Source: Candidatus Dormiibacterota bacterium (GTDB lineage: Bacteria; Chloroflexota; Dormibacteria; Aeolococcales; Aeolococcaceae). From it: DNA of 64,000 bases. Below, piece after piece: positions 42,632-51,867 of the stretch. Both the position numbers and the translations under genes were made by a program. Location: NCBI GenBank assembly GCA_003153505.1, contig PLZA01000067.1:5229-69228 (forward strand), in the 5' to 3' direction. The notes beneath the pieces were generated by a model. That model was not told where the DNA came from. It ran no database searches and saw only the letters and a list, made by a program, of their open reading frames with translations. Within the stretch, counting starts at the first letter, position 1; each line of letters begins with the position of its first letter.

Positions 42632-42940
42632 CACGCGTAGGCCCCTGCGTCTCCCGATTACGTCGCTGCTACCCATTTCGCCCGCTCCCGTACTTTGAGT
42701 GACCGCCTGTCGCAAGCGGCTGGATCCAGAGAGCATCCCACCCGGATCCAAGTCGTGTCAAGGGGTTGTCCGAACGGTCGTGGAATTTGAGGTGACGGTC
42801 CCCCGCGAGGCCTCTGCGTAGCAGAGACTCCGGGGAACTCAAAACCACCGACCCACGGAGGACCGTCACATGGGAACGTACCACCGCGGCCTGGACGTGG
42901 TCACGCCCAGCAGCGCGAAGCAGCTGGCAGCGCGGCGCAC

Positions 42941-44182
42941 ATGCCGGAGCACGTCACCGTCGCCATGGATGACCTCGCCGGCGCCTGCCGTGAAGGCTTG
43001 CTCGCGCTCGCCGTCGGGGCTGGTCTGCAGGTGATGCACACCCTGATCGAGGAGAGTGTCATCGCCGTCGCCGGACCCAAGGGCAAGCATGACCGCGATC
43101 GCCAGGTGACCCGTCATGGCACCGAGGATGGCGCCGTCACCCTGGGTGGCCGGCGTGTCCCCATCCGCCGTCCCCGGGTCCGCACCATCGACGGCAGCGC
43201 CGAGGTGTCGGTCCCGGCCTATGACCTGTTCGCCTCGCGCGACCTGCTCAACCGGATGGCTCTGGAGCGCATGCTCGCCGGGCTCTCGACGCGGCGCTAC
43301 CCGGCGGGCTTGGAGCCAGTGGGCAGCGAGGTCGAGGCCGCGGCCAGGGGCACCAAGAAGAGCGCGGTCAGCCGCCGTTACGTGGCCATGACCCGCACCG
43401 CGCTGTACGAGCTGATGGCCCGCCCGCTCGAGGCGCTGCGTCCAGTGGTGCTGATGATCGATGGCGAACACGTCGCCGATCACCTGTGCGTGGTTGCTCT
43501 GGTGATCGATGCCGATGGCAACAAGATCCCGGTCGGGCTGGTCGAGGGAGCGACCGAGAACGGCACCGTGGTCAAGGACCTGCTCGAGGACCTGGTGGCC
43601 CGCGGGCTCAACGTCAGCGGCGGCATCCTGGTCGTCATCGACGGCTCGCGCGCCCTGGCTGCGGCGGCGCGACGCGTCTTCGGCACGCGCGCCCTGGTGC
43701 ATCGCTGCCAAGTCCACAAGACTCGAAATGTGCTCGACCACCTGCCCAAGGAGAAGCACGGGTTCGTGGAGCGCAAGCTGCGCGCCGCCTACCAGCTCGA
43801 CGACCCCGAGCGAGCGCAGCGGGAGCTCACCGCCCTGGCCACGTCGCTGGAGCGGACCCATCCTGACGCCGCGGCCAGCCTCCGCGAAGGCCTGGCGGAG
43901 ACGCTCACGGTGAACCGACTGCAGCTGAGTCCGACCCTGCAGCGCACCCTGCGCACGACCAACTGCATCGAGTCGATGATCAGCATCTGCCGCACCACGG
44001 CGCGCAACGTCAAGCGCTGGCGCGACGGCGAGATGGCCTTGCGCTGGGTGGCTGATGGCATGAGCGAGGCACAGAAGCAGTTCCGCCGCGTCAAGGGCCA
44101 CCGCGACCTGCCACTGGTCGCCGCCGCCCTCACCCGTCACCTTGAAGATGTCAGACTTGACAAGAACACCAAGGCCGCGTAG
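42941..44182 (+). mobile_element. IS256-family (MULE) transposase, apparently full length
   Basis: …RCQVHKTRNVLDHLPK… and …NRLQLSPTLQRTLRTTNCIESMI… are diagnostic of actinobacterial IS256-family transposases. 413 aa with no internal stops. Confidence 0.85.
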
Positions 44183-44190
44183 CATGCATC

Positions 44191-45228
44191 ACGTCACCGA
44201 ACATCCACGACGGAAGGGACATCCCCGGCATACACAGTGACCTCACATACCTACGCGACCGTCTAACGGTTGCAAGAGACCTCCTGACCGATTCGGGCTC
44301 GGTTTTCGTACAAATCGGTGAAGAGAACATCCATCGCATCCGGCCCCTTATGGATGAGGTTTTTGGTGAGCCGAACTTCGTCAATACGATCGTCTTCAAG
44401 AAGAAGAGTGCGACCTACTCAACCGAGACCGTCTTCGATTACCTGGTTTGGTATTGCCGAAATAGAGAGTTGATCAAGGTGCGAGACCTCTATGAGCCGC
44501 GGTCGGCACCCGAGGGCGAAACAAAGTTCAACACCATAGTGACCCCGGACCTGGTGTTTCACAATGTGGCGTAACTCGGGGCGTCGGAAGCCGAGGCGTT
44601 GGTGAGGAGTGGCGGGGAATGGGCGCGGGTGAATTATCCCATTGTGAGCCAACATCCAAGCGACACTCGCAGCAAGGACTTCCCTTTTCGCGGCAAGATG
44701 AAACAATGCGGCACCAACAAGCAGTGGCGATTCGGGCCCGAAGATGGTCTGCTGCGACTGGAGAAGGCAGATAGGCTCTTTGATGGAGGTGGCGTCTCGC
44801 TCGGAGGCGTCGTTTTCTGGAGGGACTGGAATCAGGTAGCCCGATCCAACATCTGGGCTGACATGCACGGCGAGAAATTCCCAACGTACGTAGTTCAGAC
44901 AGCCACCGCGGCCGTACAACGTTGCATTCTAATGTGCACCGACCCAGGTGACCTTGTCCTCGATCCGATCTGCGGGTCGGGAACCACGGCATTCGTGTCC
45001 GAGCAGTGGGGTCGTCGCTGGATCACCGTTGATACCTCGCGTGTGGCGTTGGCGCTCGCTCGCGCGCGCATCATGGGTCACCGAGGCCTACGCTTCCCAT
45101 CCAGAACGCTTCGTTCGCGTCATGCCGCAGCCGCCGATGCTGCCAACCGCCGTCTGGATCAACCCACCCGAGCAGGAGGTGACGAAAACTCACTAATTAC
45201 CCGACCCGAGTTGTCTCAAAGGGGTTGA
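44191..45228 (+). pseudogene. N6-adenine/N4-cytosine DNA methyltransferase (beta-class, Mod-like), 5'-truncated with in-frame TAA
   Basis: …LTYLRDRLTVARDLLTDSGSVFVQIGEENIHRIRPLMDEVFGEPNFVNTIVFKK… then stop at 44575, then …CTDPGDLVLDPICGSGTTAFVSEQWGRRWITVDTSRVALALARARI (motif I). The DPPY region is missing at the IS256 junction. GC visibly lower than surroundings. Confidence 0.8.
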
Positions 45229-45692
45229 CAAGTTCCGGCATCCTCGCCGCTGGCGCGATGGTGTCCAAGCTGCTCTGGCCGACACCGGCGGACCAGAACA
45301 TCGACTGCACACTTTTGAGCGACGAGGACGAACAGGCACGGCAGCGAACTCTGGCCCGCGGCAAGAGACTGCGCACCGAACTGAAGATCAAGGGTATTCC
45401 TATTCTTGAGAGTCGAAAGGTCCGAAATGCTTTCGAGCACTTCGACGAGCGCCTCGACCGCTACCTCCTCGACCAAGGGAGCCGCTTCATCGGCGACAGG
45501 AATATCGGGCCCAAAGGACCGATCGTGCAGATCGGCGGCAAGCTCCCACCGTTTCTCCGCCATATCGATCCGCACGCCGGGACCGTATCCGTCCTTGACG
45601 AGGAGGTCGACTACCGGGAACTGTCTCGCGCAATCGCGGACGTTTCAGCCCGAGCATCCGAATGGCTGGGTCAGTTTCATAACGCACGATAA
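45225..45692 (+). CDS. Hypothetical protein (about 145-155 aa), no recognisable domain
   Basis: TTG at 45225 or ATG at 45258. Balanced, protein-like composition. 42 bp after the methyltransferase remnant and 15 bp before the next ORF. Confidence 0.5.
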   Translation: MTSSGILAAGAMVSKLLWPTPADQNIDCTLLSDEDEQARQRTLARGKRLRTELKIKGIPILESRKVRNAFEHFDERLDRYLLDQGSRFIGDRNIGPKGPIVQIGGKLPPFLRHIDPHAGTVSVLDEEVDYRELSRAIADVSARASEWLGQFHNAR

Positions 45693-45706
45693 GAGGACGG
45701 GTCACC

Positions 45707-46816
45707 TTGCCCAGCGAATATGTGCACCGGCAAGCCTGGGGCGTCGAGTTGCGATCGATTCGGGCCAACCGCCCGAAGCGAGCGCAGACGGGCGCGCGCG
45801 CTCAGACTTTTGGGGCGGCGCTCGAACAGGCGGAGCAACTCTGGCGTGCCAGCGAAGCCGTTGGGACCATCGCCAGTCCGCTTCTATTGTTCTATGGGCT
45901 GACGCAGGCGGGTCGGGCGATATGTGCCGGCGGAACTCCTGGCAACGCTTGGCGACCCGCCGAGAGCCACGGCCTCGCATTCCAATTCACGCGCCCCGCT
46001 AACGGCGCCAACCTAGACCTCGCCACGGTGGTAGTAAAGCCGAGCGGCGACGGCCTGATACAACAGGTCGCCCGCATCCTGGATTCGCCAGTCCTCAGTG
46101 GTCCAGCCACACTATCCGCACTGCTTGGCTCACTCGACGCGAAGCTGTTGTTCAGCGGTAGCCAGGTCGCGGACCCCAAACCTCTTGAGGTGCACGAGTG
46201 GACGAAGAACCTCACGACACTTGGCACTACAGCCACGAAGAGCCTGTTCCTCGCGCCAGCGCCGGATCGCTTCGCTGCAAACACCAGACTTGTCGCGGCT
46301 GGTCCACAGAATCTCGAACACACAAGAATCATTCCGCCCACCGGTGAACAGATCGCGGAATGGTTGGACACCTATCCGACGCTCCGCGGCCTGGGGGTGC
46401 CCACGGAGGTCCTGGGACCAGAGCCATCGTTGGATAGGTCCGACCGCGGTGACTGGGTCATCAAGCTCATCTGGGATACAGACGCGTCGATGGCCGGTAT
46501 CACGCAGAGCGATTGGACGGTGGAGCACCTCGATGAGCTGTACTCCTACGAGTGGAACGGAACATCCGGCGTCGTTCTCCCGGCGGTGGCGGGAAACACC
46601 GAAGCCCACGACCTCGTCGTCGCGTGGTGGCTTGTCCTGTACTGCCTGTCGATGCTTGCGAGGTACTACCCGAAAGAGTGGACCGAGATACTGGACGTGG
46701 ACCGAAGTCCACTCGCCGTACCTATCGAACACGTCCTATCAGTTGCCTACGCGGCCGTTCCGGCTCTCATCGCCTTTCGGCTCCGCTTGCTTCGCGGCAT
46801 GCAGGATCGAAGGTGA
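45707..46816 (+). CDS. Hypothetical protein (369 aa), no recognisable domain
   Basis: TTG start 9 nt after AAGAGGA RBS. No internal ATG for about 280 codons. Conserved-looking hydrophobic C-terminal segment (HDLVVAWWLVLYCLSMLARYYPKEW). Confidence 0.55.
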   Translation: MPSEYVHRQAWGVELRSIRANRPKRAQTGARAQTFGAALEQAEQLWRASEAVGTIASPLLLFYGLTQAGRAICAGGTPGNAWRPAESHGLAFQFTRPANGANLDLATVVVKPSGDGLIQQVARILDSPVLSGPATLSALLGSLDAKLLFSGSQVADPKPLEVHEWTKNLTTLGTTATKSLFLAPAPDRFAANTRLVAAGPQNLEHTRIIPPTGEQIAEWLDTYPTLRGLGVPTEVLGPEPSLDRSDRGDWVIKLIWDTDASMAGITQSDWTVEHLDELYSYEWNGTSGVVLPAVAGNTEAHDLVVAWWLVLYCLSMLARYYPKEWTEILDVDRSPLAVPIEHVLSVAYAAVPALIAFRLRLLRGMQDRR

Positions 46817-46945
46817 TCAAGGCGGCGTCGGCGAATGCGCCCGGTCGGACCTTCAAGGCGCGACAGTTTGCGCGCACGTCCGCCGCCACCGAGATCAACT
46901 ATCGTAAAGTGTAAGCGCTACGTGAGCGCCCGGGGCGTACACTCG

Positions 46946-47206
46946 ATGTGCATGGATCCTGCCTCCCGACTAGGCGAGACTTCCAAATCGCTGCTACTGA
47001 GCAAGGTTGCTGCGGCCCGGACTCTCAACGTTAGTGTTCGCCAGGTGACCCGGTTCGTCGCCAGCGGTCAGCTCGCGCCCATCAGGCTCGGACCGCGCCT
47101 GGTTCGGTTCACCCCCGCCGAGTTGGAAGCCTTCGTCGCGCGCCAGGCCGCATCGTCCCGGCCGCCGGAGTGGCCGGAGCTCGTGGGGCGACGGCGGCGG
47201 CGCTAG
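46946..47206 (+). CDS. Excisionase/HTH_17 (MerR-like) DNA-binding protein
   Basis: LLSKVAAARTLNVSVRQVTRFVASGQLAPIRLGPRLVRFTPAELEAFV. Immediately upstream of the integrase. Confidence 0.65.
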   Translation: MCMDPASRLGETSKSLLLSKVAAARTLNVSVRQVTRFVASGQLAPIRLGPRLVRFTPAELEAFVARQAASSRPPEWPELVGRRRRR

Positions 47207-47220
47207 GATTCGGCTGACAA

Positions 47221-48414
47221 ATGGCGAAACAACGGAAGCGAGCGCGCCGAGGTACTGGGAGCCACCGCATATGGCGTGGACGGCATCAGATTCGCGTTGT
47301 CATTGCTGGGAGGCTTCGCAGCTTCTCAGCCGATACGCTGGCCGAGGCGCAGGCCCTGGCGGACGTAGCAGCGCATCAAGCGGAGGCGCCCAGCGTCGCA
47401 GCCTCACCGACCGTGCGCGACTGGCTTGCCGAGTGGCTGACCCGCAAGCGGGCGAGCGTGCGGCCACAGACGTACTTCGCGTATGAAGCGCACGCGCGCC
47501 TGCACATCGTTCCGGCGATCGGACACGTTCGACTCGACGCCCTCGCCCCGTCTCACATCGACACGCTGCACGCCGCACTTGCCCGCAGGGTTAGCGGTAC
47601 CACCGCCCATCACGTCCACATGACACTCAAGGCAGCGCTCAACGGTGCTGCCAAGCGTGGTCACCGCGTGTCAAAAGCGCTTGCCGCCGTCGATGCTCCA
47701 CGCCGCCGCCCCAAGGATATCGAGACGCTGAGCCGCGAGGAGGTTGATCGCCTCCTGAAAGCGGCGTATGGTGACCCGCTCGAAGCTCTCTACGTCCTTG
47801 CCGTGACCCTGGGTATGCGCGAAGGCGAGCTGCTCGGCTTGCGCTGGCAGCACGTGCACCTTGAGGCTCGTCGCCTGGTGGTTGCCACCAACGCGACGCG
47901 GGCCCTCGATGGATCTCGAGTCCTGACCGCTCCCAAGACTGCCGCAGGCAAGCGGACACTGTATTTGCCAAGCATCGCCGTCGATGCACTCGTCCGCACC
48001 CCCCGCGCCGGTGATCTGGTGTGGCCCAATTCCGATGGGCAGCCGATGCCCGCTCAAACCTTGTTCTCGCGGCGCTGGTTGCCGATGCGGAAAGCAGCCG
48101 GGATACGACCGGTCTCGTTCCATGCCCTTCGGCACACTGCGGCGACCCTGGCCCTCGAGGACGGCCAGCCACCGCACGTGGTGGCGGCCATGCTTGGCCA
48201 TGCCAGCGTGGCCACGACCCTGCGCCTTTACGCACACGTTACCCATGCCAGCACAGAGGCGTTGGTTGACGCGATCGACGCCCGCTACGGACCGCGCTTG
48301 CGCGTCCTCTCGGAGGAGCTATTGGCCCGGTATTGGCCCAGCGAAACCGAAATCGGCTCCACTGCAACGGAATCGGAGTGCCGAGAAAGGGACTCGAACC
48401 CTTACGCCGCTTGA
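47221..48414 (+). CDS. Tyrosine-type site-specific recombinase (phage integrase family)
   Basis: SAM-like N domain plus catalytic R…HxxR…Y (…FHALRHTAATLAL…LGHASVATTLRLYAHV). 3' end runs into a tRNA-3'-end-like sequence. Confidence 0.9.
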   Translation: MAKQRKRARRGTGSHRIWRGRHQIRVVIAGRLRSFSADTLAEAQALADVAAHQAEAPSVAASPTVRDWLAEWLTRKRASVRPQTYFAYEAHARLHIVPAIGHVRLDALAPSHIDTLHAALARRVSGTTAHHVHMTLKAALNGAAKRGHRVSKALAAVDAPRRRPKDIETLSREEVDRLLKAAYGDPLEALYVLAVTLGMREGELLGLRWQHVHLEARRLVVATNATRALDGSRVLTAPKTAAGKRTLYLPSIAVDALVRTPRAGDLVWPNSDGQPMPAQTLFSRRWLPMRKAAGIRPVSFHALRHTAATLALEDGQPPHVVAAMLGHASVATTLRLYAHVTHASTEALVDAIDARYGPRLRVLSEELLARYWPSETEIGSTATESECRERDSNPYAA

Positions 48415-48495: not shown

Positions 48496-49245
48496 TTATC
48501 GGCTCTCTCCTGCGAGCTTCGAGCGTTCCTCGAGTGCCCTTTTGGCGGCGTCGAGAGCTGCTTCCGCGGGTAGCCAATCCGCCATCGGCCGCGCCTCGCC
48601 ATCTGCGGAGAACCCGACCTCCGAGCTGAGGGTCCGTACCAGCCACTCAGCACGCCTAAGCTTCGTGCGGTCCCGAGTGATGTCGACCCGCCGGGTTGAA
48701 GTCCGGTCGCTGATGTCCTTGAGCAGTTCAACCAACTGGGTGGCGAGATTGGGGAGGATGCGATACGGGTCATCGCGTGGCATGCGAACCAACCAGTACG
48801 ACACCGCTGGCTTATAAGCGGAGCCGCCTAGCAAAACGCTGTGGAACGCAGTCATCAATTTCACACCGGTGGACCAGATGTGCTGCTCCAGGTCCTGCGC
48901 GCGCAGCTGCCAGGCCGCGCTGGCTTTCTGCCAGGCCGCACGGGCTTTACGTGCCTCTGTGAGTTCAGCCCGAACCGCCTCAACCTGCTGATTCATTTCG
49001 ACTCGAACCGCCTCCGCCTTCTGATCCATTTCGACTCGGTGGGCGTGAGCCGTTTCTTGCCGAGCCGCCTCGACCGCCCTAGCGGCCGCAGCGACGCCGT
49101 CAGAGATGAGAGCGCGGAGATAGTCGGAGTGGCTGAGACCGGCTGCATCAGCCTGTTCAAACATCCGCTGAGCCTGCTCGGACGGCAGGCGACAGCTGAC
49201 CGGGGTCGACGTCGGTCTGGAGACATGACCCTCACCCTGTCGCAT
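48496..49245 (-). CDS. Ribbon-helix-helix (CopG/MobC-like) N-terminus plus coiled-coil protein
   Basis: …AGLSHSDYLRALISDG… RHH-like. Central repetitive coiled coil (VEMDQKAEAVRVEMNQQVEAVRAEL) reflected in DNA tandem repeats around 48960-49090. Confidence 0.5.
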   Translation of the reverse strand: MRQGEGHVSRPTSTPVSCRLPSEQAQRMFEQADAAGLSHSDYLRALISDGVAAAARAVEAARQETAHAHRVEMDQKAEAVRVEMNQQVEAVRAELTEARKARAAWQKASAAWQLRAQDLEQHIWSTGVKLMTAFHSVLLGGSAYKPAVSYWLVRMPRDDPYRILPNLATQLVELLKDISDRTSTRRVDITRDRTKLRRAEWLVRTLSSEVGFSADGEARPMADWLPAEAALDAAKRALEERSKLAGESR

Positions 49246-50047: not shown

Positions 50048-51289
50048 TCAAGCGAAGAGCCCGTTCAGCGCCTCCGCTGCGCTCCGTTGCATGGTCTCGG
50101 TCACGTGCGAATAGAGGTCCAGGGTGACCGCGACGGTTGCGTGCCCAAGCATCTCACTGGCCACCTTCGGGTGTACGCCGCGGCTCAACATGAGTGTCGC
50201 AGCCGTGTGGCGCAGATCATGGAAGCGGATGTGAGGGAGCGCTGAGCGAAGCAGCAGGGCCTTGAATTGTTCGGTCAGACGCGACGCGTGCAGGTAACCG
50301 CCGATCGCGCTACAGAACACGAGATCGCGGTCCTGCCACACATTCGCGGCGGCAACACGTTCGGCGACCCACGCACTCCGACGCCGACGCAACGCATCGA
50401 GCGCGACCGTGGTGAGTTCGACGCGCCGACGCGATCGACGGGTCTTCGGCTCGGTCGACTCTAAGTGCGACCGCGGCACCCCCGGCTCTCTGGCGAGCCG
50501 CCGCGGCGTGTAGACGCGCACCAGACTCCCGGTCACCGCCAGCGAGCCACCGTCCAGGTCGACGTCGGACCAGCGCAGGGCGAGCAGCTCGCCCTGACGG
50601 AGTCCTGCCGTCACCGCCAGCACGTAGAGCGCCTCCAAGCGGTCACCCGCGACGGCGTCAACAAGTCGCCGGGCCTGCTCGGGCGAAAGGACGGACATGT
50701 CGCGGTGGGTCACTCGCGGCGGGTCGACAAGTCCCGCGATGTTCGTGGGAAGCACACGCCAGCGGACCGCTTGCTCGAGCGCCCGATGCAGGGTCGCGTG
50801 GCTCCGCTTGACCGTCGCTGGACTCAGGCCGCGATCCAGGAGCGCGGCGTACGCACGTTGGACATCTCCGGGGCCGAGCCGCTCCAACCAGAGCCGGCCC
50901 AAATGGGGAATCAGGTGCAGCCTGACCTGTTCCTCGTAGCGGTCCCACGTGCGCGGTTTTAAGGACGGCCGGACACCATCGAGCCAGTCCATGAGGTATG
51001 ACGCAACCGTCTGTCGCCTCGGCAGTGGGGTGAGTCCAGTGCCGCGATTGCGGGTCGCGTCGCGGAGCTTCTGGGCGGCCTCGTGACGGGTCTTCCCGTA
51101 CACCGCTTTCCGGCTCACGTTGCCCGATGCATCGGTGGTCGTGTAGCGGGCCTGCCAGCGCCCATCCGGCAGCGGCCGCGAGCCGACCGTCCCCTCGCCG
51201 GCGGTGCGTTTCCTCATGCCCTCGACGATACGCCGATTGGCATCGATTGGCATCAGCATTGGCATCAGTTGCCCAAAATGGCCCGGCAA
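50048..51289 (-). CDS. Tyrosine-type site-specific recombinase (integrase)
   Basis: …IRFHDLRHTAATLMLSRG…LGHATVAVTLDLYSHV. Lies next to the 3' end of tRNA-Ser(GGA). Confidence 0.9.
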   Translation of the reverse strand: MPGHFGQLMPMLMPIDANRRIVEGMRKRTAGEGTVGSRPLPDGRWQARYTTTDASGNVSRKAVYGKTRHEAAQKLRDATRNRGTGLTPLPRRQTVASYLMDWLDGVRPSLKPRTWDRYEEQVRLHLIPHLGRLWLERLGPGDVQRAYAALLDRGLSPATVKRSHATLHRALEQAVRWRVLPTNIAGLVDPPRVTHRDMSVLSPEQARRLVDAVAGDRLEALYVLAVTAGLRQGELLALRWSDVDLDGGSLAVTGSLVRVYTPRRLAREPGVPRSHLESTEPKTRRSRRRVELTTVALDALRRRRSAWVAERVAAANVWQDRDLVFCSAIGGYLHASRLTEQFKALLLRSALPHIRFHDLRHTAATLMLSRGVHPKVASEMLGHATVAVTLDLYSHVTETMQRSAAEALNGLFA

Positions 51290-51346: not shown

Positions 51347-51436
51347 CGGAGCGAGAGGGATTCGAACCCTCGATACCAGTTACCCGGTATACCGCATTTC
51401 CAGTGCGGCGCCCTCGACCAACTAGGCGATCGCTCC
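51347..51436 (-). tRNA. tRNA-Ser (anticodon GGA)
   Basis: Manual fold. Acceptor GGAGCGA/TCGCTCC. Anticodon stem CCGCA/TGCGG with loop CTGGAAA. Long variable arm. T-arm GAGGGTTCGAATCCCTC. Confidence 0.8.

Positions 51437-51778: not shown

Positions 51779-51867
<89 letters not shown>

Follow-up and report, generated by a model that had tools for sequence, protein, structure and literature searches.

Two adjacent genes, a truncated ORF1-family gene and an intact YaaC gene, in a decayed integrative element of a Candidatus Dormiibacterota bacterium

Two tightly linked open reading frames (ORFs) lie just upstream of an excisionase and an integrase gene in a 64,000-nucleotide stretch of contig PLZA01000067.1 (positions 5,229 to 69,228 of the forward strand, assembly GCA_003153505.1) from a Candidatus Dormiibacterota bacterium, which was analyzed at its full length and is called the window throughout. 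Do these two ORFs form a system, or are they merely neighbours? An earlier note, made from the sequence alone, had described them as a pair of about 150 and 369 amino acids (aa) of no assignable family, and had proposed an undescribed two-gene defence or abortive-infection module. In the present analysis the first, ORF1, was found to be the remnant of a longer gene, the second, ORF2, was assigned to the existing YaaC family, and their pairing was not conserved among relatives. The explanation that we favour, with modest confidence, is that two unrelated, independently mobile, stand-alone HEPN-type accessory genes became neighbours in a single lineage of a small tyrosine-integrase element.

Pairing and integrity of the two genes

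Loci with relatives of either protein were collected from a one-genome-per-species collection (n = 11), from metagenomes (n = 33) and from viral contigs (one ORF1-family and four YaaC loci); further loci came from exact-protein look-ups of the closest relatives and from phage and plasmid records. Pairing was tested by running profiles of both families against all six-frame ORFs of the collected loci. Besides the window lineage (L002-L009) and the metagenomic contig L001, these comprised 49 other ORF1-family loci (L010-L054, L059, L060, L068 and L070; 11 genomic, ten with 8-kb flanks on both sides) and the other YaaC loci (L055-L058, L061-L067, L069 and L071), 11 of them distinct.

The only loci in which YaaC adjoined an ORF1 relative were those of the window lineage and the 95%-identical L001. 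None of the 49 other ORF1-family loci carried a YaaC gene, including those of relatives with 79%, 72% and 64% identity, and an ORF1 relative, even a fragmentary one, was found in 0/11 of the other YaaC loci, including those with 78%, 74%, 67%, 60% and 48% identity. Among 111 neighbouring ORFs, the ORF1-family genes showed no other recurrent partner, the commonest neighbours being integrase (n = 3), IS1595 (n = 2), PIN (n = 2) and helix-turn-helix (HTH; n = 2 + 2) genes. The co-occurrence by which a two-gene defence or toxin-antitoxin system is recognized was lacking for ORF1 and YaaC, indicating that the two genes were recently juxtaposed and do not make up a system, contrary to the module first proposed. 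The idea that the two proteins are paralogous HEPN halves was also examined and rejected, with an hhalign probability of 0.8% and no sequence-level support.

The first gene of the pair is incomplete in the window. Its 45 homologues found in a large protein collection are nearly all 190-210 aa long, and the window protein aligns from about residue 52 of the full-length proteins, some 47 N-terminal residues being absent. The L001 contig holds an intact 202-aa gene, 95% identical to ORF1, and after it genes for a 369-aa YaaC protein, an HTH_17 protein and an integrase; the DNA alignment of the window with this contig displayed near-identity from about position 45239 on and no similarity before it. 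All the remaining public-assembly copies of the exact locus (L002-L009) are likewise truncated. ORF1 is, then, a 5'-truncated remnant, approximately the 3' three-quarters of a gene for a protein of about 200 aa, and not the complete gene of about 150 aa for which it had been taken. Helix 1 is missing from the retained part, as is half of helix 2, and with them the conserved residues Glu18 and Gln22; from its sequence the window copy is most likely a non-functional pseudogene.

The segment immediately upstream (45069-45238), previously read as methyltransferase ORF, is the remnant of an element of the IS3 insertion sequence (IS) family: its peptide, ending in AYASHPERFVRVMPQPPMLPTAVWINPPEQEVTKTH (about 45069-45197, with the frame closed by TAA at 45195-45197), matched the C-termini of annotated "IS3 family transposase" genes in a tblastn search. 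The nominal TTG start of ORF1 falls within the end of this remnant, and a GGGG directly abuts the TTG with zero spacer. In the most economical history of the locus, an IS3-family element would have inserted at about codon 51 of an ORF1-family gene, and a later deletion would have taken most of the IS3 element together with the 5' end of the ORF1 gene and the 3' end of the methyltransferase gene.

YaaC and the ORF1 family

Profile comparison identified ORF2 as an intact member of the existing YaaC family (PF14175), with E = 2e-28 and a score of 100.2 bits against a cut-off of 27, residues 22-356 aligning on positions 24-304 of the 307 in the profile. PF14175 was present in all the 120 ORF2 homologues listed, several of which are named "YaaC family protein" by NCBI/RefSeq. 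The earlier statement that no family could be assigned was mistaken for ORF2; that both families are uncharacterized was borne out.

An AlphaFold (AF2) model of ORF2 was obtained with a predicted local distance difference test score (pLDDT) of 92.8 and a predicted template modelling score (pTM) of 0.92. Four modelled helices (29-52, 57-76, 303-320 and 337-368) make an up-down bundle that can be superposed on solved HEPN domains, interrupted between the second and third by an alpha/beta insert of about 225 residues (77-302). The lower-ranked HEPN fold matches of this model were 1wol, the prophage defence protein HepS (9oik), 1wwp, the HEPN toxin 5yep and AbiA (8oz7). The modelled core of YaaC is an HEPN-like four-helix bundle.

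Conservation was examined in 62 YaaC sequences, with identity down to about 30%. The dipeptide His88-Gly89 is invariant (62/62), and His88 (codon 45968-45970) lies 12 residues past helix 2, at the start of the insert. Arg319 (codon 46661-46663), at the end of helix 3 in the context R-Y-x-P-x-x-W, is also invariant, as are Gln41, Tyr63, Gln67, Ser315 and Tyr320; Glu40 and Glu43 are conserved in 53/62 and 55/62 of the sequences, respectively. In AF0298 (2hsb) and AbiV the histidine of the usual HEPN motif is missing, the basic residue is kept and a conserved histidine is supplied by the insert that joins helices 2 and 3, an arrangement for which an alternative HEPN active site has been proposed (PMC3710099). 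We infer that His88 and Arg319 are a predicted alternative active site of this AF0298/AbiV type. An active site, more than a mere binding surface, is suggested by the pattern of conservation, polar residues being kept on all the bundle helices.

The likeness to AF0298 has its limits: YaaC carries its long insert where AF0298 has a short loop, the sequences are 12% identical, and no minimal nucleotidyltransferase (MNT) gene adjoins YaaC, unlike AF0298; for both proteins catalysis is predicted only. The HEPN survey of Anantharaman et al. 2013 (PMC3710099) does not mention YaaC. The window protein also differs from Bacillus subtilis YaaC: it falls in an actinobacterial subgroup whose genes are carried by plasmids, integrative elements and variable islands, away from the conserved chromosomal position that yaaC occupies in B. 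subtilis.

The ORF1 family is large. A profile search of 1.84 billion cluster representatives recovered 3,223 ORF1-family proteins at E <= 0.001, and 2,065 at E <= 1e-10; among the best 150 of the 3,223 matches nearly all were single-domain proteins of about 160-300 aa. Residue conservation was counted in 129 diverse cluster representatives and numbered according to the intact protein P0002: Arg114 and Glu118 are present in all of them (129/129), followed by His119 (128/129), Arg92, Asn/Asp/His115 and Asp121 (127/129 each), Glu18 (125/129), Arg159 (122/129), Arg97 (120/129) and Gln22 (119/129). The central motif, R-[N/D]-x-x-E-H-[F/Y]-D, is of the Rx4H type, and its codons are retained in the window at 45423-45440.

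Active sites of HEPN ribonucleases (RNases) are characterized by an Rx4-6H motif whose arginine is mostly followed by N, D or H (Anantharaman et al. 2013, PMC3710099). In the ORF1 family the Rx4-6H spacing, the polar N/D/H residue after the arginine and a conserved acidic residue upstream are all present, so that the family motif is a probable HEPN-type RNase site; for the hypothesis that the family as a whole consists of HEPN-type RNases, which is based on the motif, we consider the odds to be roughly even. The AlphaFold model of P0002 (pLDDT 91.7) is mainly helical, with the motif placed between a short helix and the next one. A Foldseek comparison of the family model with the PDB yielded nothing below E = 0.97, a similarity not above the background of helical bundles.

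With the known stand-alone HEPN RNases (AbiD/F, AbiJ, AbiU2, RnlA/LsoA, HepS and the type VII HEPN-MNT toxins) the ORF1 family shares the R-[N/D]-x-x-x-H motif and the upstream glutamate, as well as small size, a helical structure and the occurrence of its genes alone, in variable regions and in a temperate phage; HepS and HEPN toxins were among its weaker fold matches. Unlike in those systems, no cognate antitoxin or MNT gene is found nearby, and the family has no significant sequence or profile match to them. The integron-cassette HEPN protein Vpc_cass2 (PDB 3jrt) ranked eighth among generic helical bundles in the comparison with the ORF1 model, with 7% identity, and lacks the extra helix and the beta-meander of the ORF1 model.

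Genomic context of the relatives and the case for two separate genes

Both proteins have close relatives in actinobacterial genomes and in metagenomes, wood metagenomes among them. Among the YaaC relatives, one adjoins genes for a TIR_2 protein and a ThiF-like protein; another adjoins BrnT/CopG, SNF2 and NOV_C helicase, reverse transcriptase and integrase genes; one lies near a large serine recombinase gene and one beside the gene of a 1,118-aa STAND/TPR protein. In L064 (7461-11982) a 60%-identical YaaC gene is located beside an intact type III restriction-modification (R-M) system (ResIII/RE_endonuc and N6_N4_Mtase), an ArdC anti-restriction gene and a resolvase gene, with a giant DUF4011/AAA_11/AAA_12/MTES_1575 helicase also near. 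Other YaaC genes reside on linear Streptomyces plasmids, beside IS elements and a DEAD-box helicase gene.

Relatives of ORF1 were found near integrase, IS1595, PIN, HipA and HTH genes. A 163-aa homologue is gp33 of the temperate Gordonia phages ZiggyZoo (L068, 3911-4402) and Samba, lying in a block of reverse-strand genes with the tail genes on one side and the serine integrase gene on the other, a common place for accessory genes expressed from the prophage. In a single case, a Hen1-type (Pnkp-associated) RNA-repair gene was observed less than 5 kb from an ORF1-family gene (within L011-L020, probably L016, 947-5675), a neighbour that would be of interest if the ORF1 family were indeed an RNase. 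These variable and mobile neighbourhoods with conflict genes are consistent with accessory or defence cargo, and the description of the pair as accessory cargo in a mobile context was borne out.

Under the explanation of two separate accessory genes, YaaC would act alone or as a homodimer, as an RNA-binding protein or a metal-independent RNase of the abortive-infection or toxin kind, and its alpha/beta insert may serve as a sensor or regulatory domain. For either protein, RNase activity and a role in defence or addiction are predictions. A more far-reaching proposal is that the ORF1 family is an unnamed branch of HEPN RNases, acting as a stand-alone abortive-infection or superinfection-exclusion toxin, that YaaC is a second HEPN effector, sensor-bearing and with an alternative active site of the AF0298/AbiV type, and that the pair in the intact ancestor (L001) is the full cargo of a minimal integrative defence element; this we regard as rather doubtful.

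Several observations weigh against assigning both genes to HEPN-type accessory functions of separate origin. The canonical Rx4-6H motif is absent from YaaC, with no histidine 4-6 residues after Arg319, and no RNase activity or phenotype was found for any YaaC protein in the searchable literature. The ORF1 family was unmatched in Pfam (2025 copy), NCBIfam, PADLOC and the PDB sequences, with single sequences as well as with 38- and 129-member profiles; a PHROG search gave only a non-significant match (E = 0.083), and a match to HEPN_SAV2148 (P0013 residues 1-77 on profile positions 108-177) was below threshold, left the motif uncovered and was discarded as noise. The PADLOC-DB v2 models matched neither ORF at E <= 0.1, only four YaaC loci and one ORF1-family locus were detected in 2.9 million viral contigs, and YaaC was absent from 50,697 phage genomes. 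The context evidence described above comes from a handful of loci and is statistically uncontrolled. Finally, the tight 14-nt spacing and the good ribosome-binding site, which are kept in L001, are operon-like; they suggest from the sequence that ORF1 and YaaC are co-transcribed in the window lineage, and the two genes may be functionally coupled in that lineage.

Some of these observations would fit a YaaC that is a non-catalytic protein of HEPN fold, binding a ligand or RNA, with a regulatory or housekeeping task that happens to be carried on mobile DNA, outside defence or conflict. The absence of PADLOC matches and the scarcity of YaaC in viral contigs and phage genomes agree with it, the chromosomal yaaC of B. 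subtilis has been grouped with core genes that co-evolve with polC (PMC3814617), and a binding function is assumed for many HEPN domains that do not have the Rx4-6H motif (PMC3710099). However, His88, Arg319, Gln41, Tyr63 and Gln67 are invariant, Glu40 and Glu43 are conserved and polar residues occur on all the bundle helices, and all the actinobacterial YaaC relatives examined are in variable or mobile neighbourhoods; we consider this alternative unlikely, while giving it some weight.

The operon-like arrangement could also mean that the pair is a genuine lineage-specific operon, a toxin-antitoxin-like or dual-HEPN module that is the sole cargo of a mini element, the window copy being what was left after an IS knocked out the toxin-like partner. 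In L001 the order, the orientation, the 13-14-nt spacing and the ribosome-binding site are the same, and between ORF1 and a chromosomal-looking ABC transporter gene there are only 375 bp of intergenic DNA; moreover, the loss of the motif-bearing ORF1 next to an intact YaaC is the asymmetry expected of a toxin and its neutralizer. Such an operon is nevertheless improbable, given zero co-occurrence in the 49 and 11 other loci, among them relatives at 60-79% identity, the negligible hhalign probability between the two profiles, and the fact that both families consist mostly of solo genes.

The decayed island and its surroundings

The features of the region are listed in Table 1. From left to right the island consists of the IS256 copy, the methyltransferase remnant, the IS3 remnant, the truncated ORF1, YaaC, xis, int1 and a fragment resembling a transfer RNA (tRNA); to the right of the fragment, on the minus strand, there follow a gene for a 249-aa protein, another ORF, int2 and then tRNA-Ser(GGA). 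The two linked ORFs were found where they had been described, with a Shine-Dalgarno-like sequence before the second; ORF1 ends with a TAA at 45690-45692, and the spacer measures 14 nt and not 15. The upstream decayed methyltransferase, the nearby IS256 copy and the downstream xis and int genes were likewise confirmed. The true start of xis is likely the ATG at about 46954, giving a protein of about 84 aa; the L001 orthologue was called as 86 aa.

Table 1. Coordinates of the genes and other features in and around the island (window positions)
Feature	Position	Strand	Details
IS256-family (Mutator-type) transposase gene	42941-44182	+	PF00872 Transposase_mut, E = 1.2e-29; left edge of the decayed island
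Type III-like N6/N4 DNA methyltransferase (Mod) remnant	44188-45079	+	Pieces 44188-44574 and 44599 to ~45079, in two frames
IS3-family element remnant	45069-45238	+	Last ~40 codons of the transposase and ~40 bp of terminal sequence
ORF1	45225-45692	+	155 aa from a TTG start
Truncated ORF1-family gene	45239-45692	+	Retained 3' part, codons ~52-202 of the gene for a ~200-aa protein
Shine-Dalgarno-like AAGAGGA	45691-45697	+	Begins within the ORF1 stop codon and lies 9 nt before the TTG (45707) of ORF2; read from the sequence
ORF2	45707-46816	+	369 aa from a TTG start
Intact YaaC-family gene (ORF2)	45707-46816	+	369 aa; PF14175
Excisionase-like HTH_17 protein (xis)	46835-47206	+	PF12728, E = 1.3e-6
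Tyrosine integrase int1	47221-48414	+	Phage_integrase 7e-23; Phage_int_SAM_3 2.2e-10
tRNA-like 3' fragment (T-arm and acceptor 3' strand)	48371-48405	-	Overlaps the last codons of int1; read from the sequence
Second tyrosine integrase int2	50048-51289	-	Phage_integrase 1.7e-22; directly beside tRNA-Ser(GGA)
tRNA-Ser(GGA)	51347-51436	-	ARAGORN and Rfam
tRNA-Ser(CGA)	51779-51867	+	ARAGORN

The methyltransferase remnant has its 5' end cut by the IS256 copy, a stop or frameshift at about 44572-44599, and its 3' end cut at about 45075. It matched N6_N4_Mtase (1.9e-13) over positions 136-217 of that 221-position profile, and the PADLOC type III methyltransferase model MTase_III (1.2e-39) over positions 399-533 of 983 only. 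It also aligned to residues 131-387 of the 652-aa Mod protein encoded in L064 beside the YaaC relative, with an identity of 20-34%; on account of this low identity, the possibility that the two belong to the same island was rejected. Two similar motifs were observed, GTGTCAAGGGGTTGTCC at 42755-42771, just left of IS256, and GTCTCAAAGGGGTTGAC at 45213-45229, at the end of the IS3 remnant; their likeness may reflect a second IS-end remnant, or chance.

The region is a decayed integrative element with accessory cargo, beside a second element: int1 is the integrase of the element carrying ORF1 and YaaC, and int2, next to tRNA-Ser(GGA), belongs to a separate neighbouring one. The tRNA-like fragment at the end of int1 gave no tRNA call with ARAGORN or Rfam and does not match tRNA-Ser(GGA) exactly; probably it marks a relic attachment site, in which case two integrase elements lie in tandem. 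The earlier note had placed the pair at a tRNA-Ser integration hotspot; a tRNA-Ser gene with an integrase is indeed present, but it is int2 that sits there, while int1 ends at its own fragment. No direct repeats of tRNA-Ser that could mark attachment sites were found around the island, the T-arm of tRNA-Ser(GGA) being single-copy in the window, nor were a left-hand attachment repeat or boundary or informative long direct repeats detected; the left side of the island is taken up by IS256 and the methyltransferase and IS3 remnants. The tRNA-Ser genes GGA and CGA are divergent and about 340 bp apart, and only the GGA copy is flanked by an integrase gene. The minus-strand ORF of 249 aa (48496-49245) contains tandem direct repeats of 21 nt and 33 nt at 48907-49029; its N-terminus is NikA-like (ribbon-helix-helix) below threshold, and its middle is repetitive and coiled-coil-like.

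The guanine-cytosine (GC) content of the window is 65.1%, a high value of the kind seen in Actinomycetota. The lower local GC reported previously was recovered for the ORF pair (0.619 versus a mean of 0.651, standard deviation 0.025, in windows of the same size), but it is modest, 12% of the same-size windows having an equal or lower value; the segment with a markedly low GC is the methyltransferase remnant (0.57).

A role of both ORFs in the maintenance of the element, as a replication initiator, a regulator or a partition function, would fit their location directly upstream of xis and int1, in the same orientation. No evidence for this was found: neither ORF1 nor ORF2 contains HTH, Rep, primase or ParA-type domains, and their homologues mostly have no integrase nearby, making such a role very improbable. 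The last suggestion, in which the dead methyltransferase has left the pair behind as its orphaned restriction or effector partner, draws on the type III-like character of the remnant, the YaaC relative beside an intact type III R-M system and the known theme of HEPN genes within R-M operons (PMC3710099), and is close to refuted, as neither ORF has a Res-type helicase or endonuclease domain, Mod is fragmentary and only distantly similar to its L064 counterpart, the IS3 remnant and the deletion junction lie between it and the pair, and the L001 pair has no methyltransferase upstream.

The biological message of the window itself is ordinary, that of an IS-riddled, decayed island where one gene of the pair has most likely been lost to function. 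What had appeared as a mystery two-gene system is recast as two separate, testable statements, one per family. For YaaC, a widespread family without a functional hypothesis in the literature searched, there is now a candidate catalytic pair, His88 and Arg319, together with an insert that is possibly a sensor. The unnamed ORF1 family, present in variable islands and in temperate actinophages, can reasonably be put forward as a candidate RNase toxin or defence gene of a new, stand-alone kind.

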